Source: Vescimonas coprocola | GTDB taxonomy: Bacteria; Bacillota; Clostridia; Oscillospirales; Oscillospiraceae | Direction of reading: 5' to 3' | Length of the DNA: 24,000 bases | Assembly: GCF_018408575.1 (NCBI RefSeq) | Contig: NZ_AP023418.1 | Span: 872,415 to 896,414 of the forward strand | In this document: piece after piece, positions 14,072 through 14,856 of the stretch | How the letters are laid out: every line of letters begins with the position of its first letter | How positions within the stretch are numbered: the stretch's first letter is position 1 | The notes under the pieces: generated by a model | What the model was told of the DNA's origin: nothing | Database searches by the model: none | Seen by the model: the letters and a program-made list of their open reading frames with translations, nothing else | Translations under genes and position numbers: made by a program

Positions 14072-14323
14072 GCAAAAGCACCGGCCAAACGGTCGGTGCC
14101 TTTACGGTATTTCAATGCGAAAGGGTATTGAAATGCATGACTGAGCTTTGTTAATCCCCTGACAAAGATTCACAGATTTACAGAAGTTGCAGGGGGTAAT
14201 ACTGAACCCCCTGCCCTTGTGAGACATACACAAAACAACGGGAAAGAAATTGTGCAGTCTCACGAAGATTGTGAAATCGTAAACTAAGATTCTCAAATTC
14301 TCAGAGATTACAGGGGTAATACT
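14072..14323 (-). ncRNA. Candidate ncRNA B (~250 nt), bounded by a promoter and a terminator
   Basis: It lies downstream of a perfect TTGACA-N17-TATAAT and ends at GCACCGACC-GTTT-GGCCGGTGC followed by TTTTGCT (14099-14071). It contains no ORF preceded by an RBS. It has internal hairpins and a duplicated ~40-nt module. Confidence 0.45.
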
Positions 14324-14329
14324 AAGTAT

Positions 14330-14358
14330 ATTATACCAGATAGGCGAAAAAGTGTCAA
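14330..14358 (-). promoter_or_regulatory. Perfect consensus sigma-A promoter (promoter B)
   Basis: The minus strand reads TTGACA (14358-14353), CTTTTTCGCCTATCTGG (17 nt), TATAAT (14335-14330). Confidence 0.7.
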
Positions 14359-14390
14359 CCAGAATTTTTCGAAAGTGCATTTACAAAAAA

Positions 14391-14576
14391 CCGCAGTCCG
14401 CAGGAACCACGGCGGGGTCGGCTTCGGAGACGAGCGCCGCAAGCGGCGAAGCCTGAGGATTGCACCGGTGCAGCCGTTCCGATGCCCTGCTGCATGAACG
14501 CCGCAAGCGGCGCACGCAGTCGCAGGGCGAACGGCACCACCGGCACGATCCTCACCCGCCTGCCTACGAACTGCGG
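14391..14576. other. 186-nt GC-rich nested-helix domain (three-way junction) flanked by A/T runs
   Basis: The closing helices are 14391-14397/14570-14576 and 14411-14416/14555-14560. One hairpin spans 14420-14453. A long hairpin spans 14455-14553. The 14-nt tip CGCCGCAAGCGGCG occurs twice. Confidence 0.6.
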
Positions 14577-14742
14577 CAAAAATAAAAAAAGATTTTACCA
14601 TGGGTAAAAACAACGGGAAAGGCTATGGGGATAAGAAAGAACACGGGGAACCGCCCGCAAGGAGTACAGAGGTGCCTCAAAATAGCAGCAAACAGGGTCG
14701 GCAGCGTCTACCGAGGTGCGGCGGACTATCCTACTTGCACTG

Positions 14743-14775
14743 AGTTGAACAAAACATCATCCATTTTGTTCAATC
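14743..14775. repeat. Palindrome PAL3
   Basis: TTGAACAAAA-N9-TTTTGTTCAA (14745-14773), with the same flanks as PAL1 and PAL2 (..GTTCAATC). Confidence 0.75.
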
Positions 14776-14827
14776 TTGTGTGCCGAAGAAAAGGATCCCC
14801 CGCTGGAGCCGAGATGCCGTTTTGCGT

Positions 14828-14856
14828 ATCATAACAGGCGAACAAATGTTTGTCAA
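14828..14856 (-). promoter_or_regulatory. Near-consensus sigma-A promoter (promoter A)
   Basis: The minus strand reads TTGACA (14856-14851), AACATTTGTTCGCCTGT (17 nt), TATGAT (14833-14828). Confidence 0.65.

Follow-up and report, generated by a model that had tools for sequence, protein, structure and literature searches.

Integrative mobile elements exploiting Xer recombination (IMEXs) are exemplified by CTXphi, VGJphi, the Vibrio TLCphi satellite and Legionella LME-1 (PMC5357621; PMC9765430). The dif sites at which they form arrays have an 11-6-11 format, and in the case of difSL, the recombinase gene xerS adjoins the site (PMC5357621). Miniphage cheaters are also known (PMC11996451), and Reps of the circular Rep-encoding single-stranded (CRESS) DNA type have been found in integrated bacterial plasmids, the pCRESS groups (Kazlauskas et al. 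2019, PMC6668415). Here, a locus with traits of each of these systems is described from Vescimonas coprocola, a human-gut member of the Oscillospiraceae, on a 24,000-nucleotide stretch of its DNA (NZ_AP023418.1, positions 872,415-896,414; hereafter the window, whose coordinates are used throughout). The region analyzed is the 1.45-kb spacer (13576-15022) between the convergent genes sigF and coaX. It contains a gene-free, strain-variable insert, which sits at dif-type sites and carries a duplicated inovirus-like origin together with a covarying fold. In our reading this insert of ~990 bp is probably a Rep-less and integrase-less, origin-bearing element of satellite or miniphage-like type that uses Xer sites; mobility, replication by a helper and a satellite lifestyle are what its architecture suggests.

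As in an IMEX, the insert has no integrase of its own, is bounded by dif-like sequences, has an attachment core confined to a single arm and the adjoining edge of the center, occurs in tandem arrays of different elements at one site, and is tied to rolling-circle filamentous phages. It differs in having no genes whatsoever and a Gram-positive gut anaerobe as its host, in a perfectly palindromic site that adjoins a lone Xer-family gene and recurs at a second locus, and in that its dependence on Xer is putative. In f1 miniphages the f1 origin is duplicated, and the insert resembles the miniphages of f1/M13 and Pf in that the intergenic origin is kept and duplicated, the structural genes are gone, and a full-length helper is needed, or in the case of the insert, expected to be needed. 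However, such miniphages arise and vanish in cultures, whereas the insert is chromosomally integrated and has diverged into lineages; moreover, the helper lacks most of the sequence of the insert, and packaging of the insert is putative. The pCRESS plasmids are comparable to the putative helper, both being chromosomally integrated and having a Rep with an HUH nuclease and a superfamily 3 (SF3) helicase; the insert itself differs by having an origin and no Rep, while the Rep loci differ by adding a Zot-like ATPase and tiny open reading frames (ORFs), whereas PMC6668415 reports no relatives of known viral structural proteins for its elements. As portrayed in PMC12193555, the deltasatellites of plant CRESS-DNA viruses are, like the insert, small and non-coding and share only the origin, i.e., the nonanucleotide stem-loop and the iterons, with the helper that supplies Rep; the bacterial host, the integrated state at a recombination site and the inovirus-like helper set the insert apart. 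Lastly, Acinetobacter pdif modules (PMC7399989) are likewise flanked by Xer-type sites and thought to be mobile by Xer recombination, but they carry resistance or other genes, no replication origin, and inverted pairs of XerC/XerD sites.

The insert was revealed by comparison of strains. An earlier note on the window had proposed that the spacer contains two tandem candidate genes for noncoding RNA (ncRNA) on the minus strand, called unit A and unit B, each with its own promoter. Conservation in relatives was not found, as blastn of the spacer gave no match in 17 related Oscillospiraceae sigF loci; the closest genomes found were from uncultured organisms with SigF proteins 56-79% identical, and in these synteny stops at sigF, the next gene being convergent and unrelated. 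An initial search with the SigF protein was dominated by 99% variants and offered no intermediate species, but it yielded an allele series: contigs with two other SigF variants of the same species provided 12 strain loci, in which the spacer was 498-513 bp long in six and 1437-2523 bp in the other six. Alignment showed that the short allele equals window positions 15022-14763 joined to 13783-13532, the two parts overlapping by 14 nt, AGATTGAACAAAAT. Because the short allele joins the flanks at this 14-nt core, the segment 13770-14762 is recognized as an insert, i.e., a gene-free stretch of 993 bp, described here on the minus strand, that is bounded by direct copies of AGATTGAACAAAAT and missing from six of the 12 loci. 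Between lineages, the inserts of the long alleles are 76-84% identical and the flanks 96-99%. No gene was called in the spacer in eight contigs of the same species, and the insert has no conserved ORF, no Rep, and no recombinase or integrase of its own.

The ends of the insert were then found to be recombination-site-like. At the right lies a perfect 28-bp palindrome, ATTGAACAAAA-TAAAAA-TTTTGTTCAAT (13754-13781), of 11-6-11 format, which is the same as the sole site of the short alleles. The left site (14744-14776, minus strand; PAL3 of the earlier note) combines a consensus left arm with a degenerate right arm, TTTTGTTCAAC, around a 9-nt center, the core AGATTGAACAAAAT being at 14776-14763. 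Each side is associated with a 96-nt segment, here called P, that comprises a promoter, a short GC hairpin and a T-run. P segment A (14777-14858, minus strand) has TTGACA at 14856-14851 and TATGAT at 14833-14828, followed by the hairpin GGCTCC-AGCGG-GGATCC (14810-14793) and TTTTCTT (14792-14786); it belongs to the conserved flank and is shared by every allele, short ones included. At its 3' end (13784-13890, minus strand), the insert has a degenerate site, PAL2 (13860-13890), and P segment C, with TTGACT-17-TACCAT at 13859-13831, a module that adjoins the xer gene in L152, L156 and L118. Each insert variant has a paralogue of the segment at its 3' end, and others directly precede the 28-bp site beside the xer gene or occur in L097. 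Since P segments are found with recombination sites, promoter A is a feature of the recombination module and not the start of a 435-nt RNA gene. Unit A as a single transcription unit could not be upheld, its promoter lying outside the insert in the conserved flank, and its remaining body, like all of unit B, lying inside the strain-variable part.

Several other alleles bear on the behavior of the insert. One 1045-nt contig (L105) has a 55-nt terminal overlap and represents a single 990-bp unit closed at the 14-nt core, which could be either a circle or a tandem repeat; its junction is identical in sequence to the left junction site, and the junction predicted for a circle is GATATGCGAGATTGAACAAAATGGATGATG. 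In L150, two distinct insert variants are arranged in tandem within one sigF-coaX spacer, with sites between them. Copies 95-97% identical to the insert were found at another locus, beside an Xer-family gene (L118, L134), and a copy 72-76% diverged lies beside the xer gene of another genome (L097, L109) with the order of parts unchanged; the L097 relative carries a perfect TTGACA-17-TATAAT promoter. It is to be noted that two entries of a representative protein library, P0399 and P0400 (214-225 aa), are translations of a further diverged lineage of the gene-free element, in which the stretches of the GC domain and of SITP (AGTATTACCCC) are recognizable; the family therefore extends past the sampled genomes. 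A 16-bp perfect hairpin with a T-run on the plus strand (13963-14001) also lies in the insert and is kept in L097, and its loop is inverted in some strains, e.g., as a reverse-complement polymorphism of positions 13979-13985 in L065.

The 28-bp site was present upstream of xer in every xer locus read. It lies 150-231 nt upstream of the Xer-family gene in L151-L161 and L118, despite differing intervening sequence; L134 has the site upstream of a partial xer gene, L162 begins one base within it, and L097 has a variant site, ACTAAACAAAATAAAAATTTTGTTTAAT, 110 nt upstream of a xer gene whose recombinase is 76% identical. The recombinase at the xer locus is a tyrosine recombinase of 341 aa, and it scored 232, 222 and 191 bits with the models of XerC, XerD and archaeal XerA, respectively, in all cases below the equivalog cut-offs. 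The site is best described as a candidate Xer recombination site of dif type, and together with the junctions it provides the traits of an IMEX locus, namely, dif-like flanks, no recombinase within the element, empty and occupied sites, and arrays; the position of xer beside its site is reminiscent of xerS and difSL. Reading of the palindromes as operators or terminators was displaced by the recombination-site reading, given the junctions and the linkage to xer. Upstream of the xer-adjacent site in L151 (455-2147) lies another rolling-circle element, which encodes a Rep of the REP_ORF2-G2P family, an ORF of 72 aa and a truncated integrase-family ORF of 182 aa; the site is therefore a hotspot for such elements. 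The pattern ATTGAACAAAA-N6-TTTTGTTCAAT was also noted in gut viral contigs (L032, L034, L035, L037-L039, L042, L044, L048, L055 and L057), with other 6-nt centers (ATATCA, GATATG, TGATAT) and, in L032, adjoining a ParB-like ORF; these may be attachment sites of other Xer-exploiting phages. Like the L151 element, the tandem variants of L150 and the L105 contig, they were taken as signs of activity of the sites.

Unit B turned out to be a phage origin without the phage. A 42-nt motif occurs in it twice, 120 nt apart, and a degenerate pattern of this motif, scanned against metagenome contigs, produced 78 matches, about half of which were further alleles of the locus and ~36 of which were other loci, with Rep genes. 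In the Rep loci, a GC-rich hairpin, a stem-loop, two direct 8-mers, a small hairpin and a ribosome-binding site precede an ORF that starts with M..ARSRKWLITINNP. The stem-loop, CAGGGGGG-TCAGTATTA-CCCCCCTG, was located upstream of every Rep gene found, and the paired 8-mers co-vary between loci, being of the GAGAAT, GTGAAT, GTAAAT and GCAAAT types. Origins of CRESS-DNA replicons have this format, with the nonanucleotide core AGTATTAC displayed in a stem's loop and iterons after it. The conserved blocks of unit B are evidently rolling-circle-origin DNA signals of this type, being homologous to the origin beside a Rep gene in prophages.

All the elements of the unit lie on the minus strand. Promoter B (14330-14358), TTGACA-17-TATAAT with a TG extension, is predicted to fire at or next to the first copy of the nonanucleotide, and it precedes the origin copies in all lineages, with the consensus sequence in 33 of 54 and the variant TGTATGAT in 15 of 54. 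Origin copy R1 (14257-14323) starts with the core AGTATTAC (14323-14316), without the 5' stem arm, and contains the iterons CTGAGAAT/TTGAGAAT (14304-14289); it is collinear with the nonanucleotide, iterons and small hairpin of the phage up to the rep ribosome-binding stem (GTGAGAC, 14263-14257), and is 78-86% identical to Rep loci by blastn. Origin copy R2 (14146-14213) is complete, with a stem-loop, CAGGGGG-TTCAGTATTA-CCCCCTG (14213-14190), that displays the nonanucleotide NAGTATTAC, iterons CTGTAAAT/CTGTGAAT (14183-14168) and a small hairpin (14167-14146), and along 51-68 nt it shares 83-94% identity with the sequence immediately preceding Rep genes. The GTGAGAC/GTCTCAC hairpin (14219-14263) is the collapsed form of a long-range stem, which in the prophages has the origin and the start of rep between its arms. 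When unit B was compared with a prophage composite, the order was R1, then the stretch that lies upstream of the phage origin, then the complete R2; therefore, unit B corresponds to one and a half tandem copies of the phage intergenic region from which the entire coding part has been deleted. The deletion junction is the hairpin loop, which holds the 15-nt element of the earlier note and is the most variable part of the unit. The number of origin units ranges from 1 to 3 with a period of 119-123 nt.

The Rep gene of these loci encodes a protein with Viral_Rep (Pfam, 31.6 bits against a cut-off of 26) and RNA_helicase domains, i.e., an HUH endonuclease and an SF3 helicase, in which the motifs LITINN, HTHVFF, YVLK, GKTGSGKT and IIFEEF are legible; it matches solved Rep helicases of the circovirus type (7lar, E = 2e-11). 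A conserved assembly ATPase resembling Zot is encoded 5-6 kb downstream (27.4 with Pfam Zot, cut-off 20.3; 1e-10 with the Zot-like PHROG), and in between are runs of ORFs of 48-84 aa and one protein of 400-700 aa. Overall, the gene set appears inovirus-like. In L075, L089 and L073, for example, the ribosome-binding region of rep can pair with a complementary stretch that precedes the origin, and the pairing shifts in step between groups (CCTCACAAG/CTTGTGAGG, CTCACCAT/ATGGTGAG, CCTCC../..GGAGG), which suggests that a long-range stem encloses the origin and masks the rep start in the prophages. The host of the Rep prophages could not be learned from cluster names, which were uninformative. A 94-nt stretch of the window (7375-7468), where a small gene ends shortly ahead of a CrcB-like ORF, is 94.7% identical to 1698-1791 of L088, in the flank of a Rep prophage, and it is the only hint of a host lineage that may be common to helper and insert.

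The remaining large feature of the insert is the GC-rich domain of unit A (14391-14573, minus strand), a branched hairpin structure that was present as the earlier note described it. Of 17 distinct versions from three lineages, eight were aligned, and in these the fold has 66 pairs, 22 of them with compensatory changes, and 96.7% of cells are paired. Sliding the partners by 1-3 columns lowered the pairing to 36-48%, and the observed covariation was reached by no shuffle. Only the minus strand accommodates the four invariant G.U pairs and a number of changes from G-C to G-U; it is the strand of the predicted transcripts as well as that of the nonanucleotide, i.e., the expected displaced strand of single-stranded DNA (ssDNA). 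The T6 run that follows the domain (14390-14385), also present as described, is found in this allele only; since it is not conserved in the other lineages, it is not a conserved terminator. We infer that the fold is a candidate complementary-strand origin, packaging signal, or both, of the single-stranded form; as the transcribed strand and the expected ssDNA strand are one and the same, the covariation is equally compatible with a role as RNA.

Together, these features suggest how the element could work. An Xer-family tyrosine recombinase would excise and insert it at the 28-bp sites in the manner of an IMEX, and the resulting circle would be replicated in trans; a helper phage, either resident or incoming, would supply the Rep, and this Rep would nick AGTATT/AC in the loop of CAGTATTAC. 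The GC-rich fold would serve the ssDNA form, as complementary-strand origin and/or in packaging. Unit B would comprise a promoter of the element reading across the origin copies to a terminator, and unit A a promoter of the flank, paralogous to the segment that precedes xer, reading into the left part of the insert. A number of points weigh against this scheme. With regard to the origins, R1 lacks its 5' stem arm, and a pair of active origins in the same sense, separated by 120 nt, could be unstable. With regard to the helper, its similarity to the insert is limited to ~60-70 nt per origin copy, and nothing in the Rep loci matches the remainder of the insert, so that a shared packaging signal is unsupported; the 28-bp site was not found in the Rep prophage loci fetched, which seem to use an IS30-like transposase, and that insert and helper share a host would follow from the identity of their origins only. 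Finally, L105 can be explained as an assembled tandem duplication instead of a circle, and the 28-bp site is only a candidate for the true chromosomal dif.

The foremost alternative, which we consider unlikely, is that the insert is an inert relic, i.e., a decayed prophage or miniphage with fossil signals, with the short allele resulting from a deletion that joined the repeated P segment and palindrome. Such an origin would agree with the lack of a Rep or integrase inside the insert, with the truncation of R1, and with the flanking P segments of 96-107 nt, which are direct repeats able to mediate deletion; in L097 there is even a flanking repeat of 300 nt. However, at least three to four diverged lineages have retained the architecture, the promoter, the terminator and the covarying fold, near-identical copies occur at two different loci, two variants stand in tandem, and one contig is a circle or a tandem.

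A second alternative, rather improbable in our estimate, is close to the proposal of the earlier note, namely, that the promoters drive stable, trans-acting ncRNAs, possibly element-borne, which interfere with a helper phage or regulate host genes, and that the GC-rich fold and unit B are functional RNAs. What the note had described in the sequence was indeed confirmed. Promoter B was present at 14358-14330 in its full consensus (12 of 12 positions, with the TG extension), and promoter A, TTGACA-17-TATGAT, at 14856-14828 (11 of 12); the 3.5-kb region has nine promoter-like sites as against 2.2 +/- 1.6 in shuffles. The intrinsic terminator of unit B, GCACCGACC-GTTT-GGCCGGTGC-TTTTGCT (14071-14099, minus strand), folds as a 3' hairpin and is retained with other stem sequences in L068 and L097. 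The GTGAGAC/GTCTCAC hairpin was likewise found, and the two units fold far better than shuffles (z = -5.9 and -6.2). As had been anticipated, no known RNA family was recognized, Rfam giving no match in 13400-15100 at gathering or permissive thresholds (best permissive E >= 0.06, far under gathering). The strong folds, the near-consensus promoters with a terminator, the covarying, G.U-bearing structure on the transcribed strand, and the retention of promoter B in a 72%-diverged relative all speak for RNA.

The region also proved to be non-coding, as claimed, with no Pfam match for the longest ORFs and no codon-position bias. Mismatches between lineages were uniform over codon positions, and many indels break the frame, most of them not being multiples of 3. 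A 92-aa frame across unit B matched six ORF calls (56-225 aa) among 1.84 billion representatives, all of which are translations of the same element or its relatives. A decayed protein gene or any other coding reading was ruled out by the lack of independent homologues, the uniform codon positions and the frame-breaking indels.

Several points count against the RNA genes. The exact 15-nt repeat exists as reported (14232-14246 and 14607-14621), but its interpretation as a base-pairing seed failed, since it is variable filler at the deletion junction: only 19 of 54 copies have an exact 15-mer at the two positions, another 19 of 54 have it at neither, and in the L061 type, 15-mer and hairpin are swapped for GGAAGC/GCTTCC. 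The conserved blocks of unit B are accounted for as DNA origin signals, conservation does not extend to the T-run that follows the GC domain, some strains have the promoter of unit A without its body, and the covariation of the GC domain cannot separate RNA from DNA. Of the earlier proposal, what stood is the GC-rich domain, as a conserved single-strand fold of the minus strand, along with the noncoding character, the strong promoter and terminator signals and the lack of a known RNA family. The region may still be transcribed, and the original observation is confirmed, while its interpretation is partly supported. The case teaches that a consensus promoter and a terminator without an ORF are insufficient to call a small RNA (sRNA) gene; it was the comparison of alleles across strains that settled the matter.

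A far less probable reading derives the locus from clustered regularly interspaced short palindromic repeats (CRISPR), as a degenerate leader or array or a repeat-mimic RNA, tied to a solitary type I-C-like repeat 430 nt downstream; in this case, the predicted processing point of the unit B RNA would be ATTGAAAT. The solitary repeat, GTCGCACTCCTCATGGAATGCGTGGATTGAAAT (13614-13646, minus strand), is 30/33 identical to a true array repeat, that of a Paenibacillus plasmid array with a period of 67-71, and the end of unit B, GCATTGAAATACCGT (14104-14116), is similar to GGATTGAAATACGGT (13609-13623), which comprises the 3' end of the repeat and its flank; GATTGAAATAC is kept at the equivalent place in L097 (~1774-1784). 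Nonetheless, there is one repeat only, other places reaching at most 20/33, within the range of shuffles; there are no cas genes in the window; the phage origin unit accounts for the period of 120 nt; and the repeat is in the flank, not in the insert. For these reasons (one repeat, no cas, a period explained by the phage origin), a CRISPR remnant was dropped as an account of units A and B. The repeat itself lies between the 28-bp site, ~107 nt upstream of it, and a terminator that follows after 38 nt, is kept in all alleles, with one substitution in L068 and a 9-nt internal duplication in L065, and could be an array relic or a repeat-mimic RNA. When the spacer was searched by blastn in phage and plasmid collections, the match was limited to the stretch of this repeat, and viral contigs, scanned with the exact CRISPR repeat, with the origin unit and with the basal part of the GC hairpin, gave no matches.

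An integron-like platform, with a tyrosine recombinase gene, an adjacent site and a cassette array with attC-like palindromes, is just as improbable: the topology of recombinase gene, promoter, site and inserted modules would suit it, and the arms ATTGAAC/GTTCAAT resemble RYYYAAC/GTTRRRY, but the recombinase is not of the integron type by profile scores (integrase_gron 85 bits against a cut-off of 265, PRK15417 52 against 435, compared with 232 and 222 for XerC and XerD), the 28-bp palindromic site has the 11-6-11 build of dif, and the modules are gene-free with their own promoter.

Regarding the surroundings of the insert, coaX (Pan_kinase) occupies 12761-13531 on the plus strand, and sigF, the last gene of the spoIIAA-spoIIAB-sigF operon, 15023-15727 on the minus strand. 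Just past sigF, an 18-bp perfect hairpin, GGCTCAATCAACCCCTCC...GGAGGGGTTGATTGAGCC (14876-14921), is kept in all alleles; it has a T-run on neither strand, and its arms hold AATCAAC/GTTGATT, vaguely resembling the arms of the 28-bp site. Near coaX, the loop of a perfect hairpin at 13550-13555 shows a reverse-complement inversion polymorphism in L067, L068 and L070. In L065 (~5190-6215), an extra 1-kb element with terminal inverted repeats (CGGGTGT.CGTAA), a TnpV-family gene and a 109-aa ORF is found at window position ~13552, within the loop of the coaX/spacer terminator hairpin. Elsewhere in the window, a large serine recombinase (362-1888; Resolvase, Recombinase, Zn_ribbon_recom, DUF4368) and a region with many small ORFs without Pfam match plus an HTH_26 protein (2000-8500) probably constitute a separate integrated mobile element, and a T-box leader (19297-19523, minus strand; 99.1 bits, above gathering) lies upstream of a class I tRNA synthetase gene with a Val_tRNA-synt_C arm.

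Returning to the satellite-like element, a bolder form of this reading may be offered tentatively, as a possibility to which we give somewhat less than even weight: the insert could be a living, transmissible, wholly gene-free satellite of a Gram-positive filamentous phage, which would park in the manner of an IMEX at the Xer/dif-type site of a single recombinase, excise as a circle of 990 nt, be copied from its duplicated origin by the CRESS-type Rep of its helper, and be packaged by way of the GC-rich fold, with an origin-spanning RNA that would prime or tune replication or interfere with the helper. To our knowledge, satellites and cheaters of filamentous phages have been protein-coding elements (RS1, TLCphi) or short-lived laboratory miniphages, and we know of gene-free, origin-only satellites for plant CRESS-DNA viruses only. 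A gene-free bacterial element combining the traits of IMEX, miniphage and deltasatellite was not found in the literature searched. If this form is true, the 28-bp palindrome beside xer would be the unrecognized dif of these Oscillospiraceae, and an abundant human-gut bacterium would harbor a stable, diverging, chromosomally stored origin module devoid of genes, which would connect these kinds of satellite. A phage parasite could then consist of cis-acting signals alone. The locus would also offer a handle on two little-known subjects, the inovirus-like prophages of gut Clostridia that have CRESS-type Reps, and a candidate one-recombinase Xer/dif system in these bacteria.

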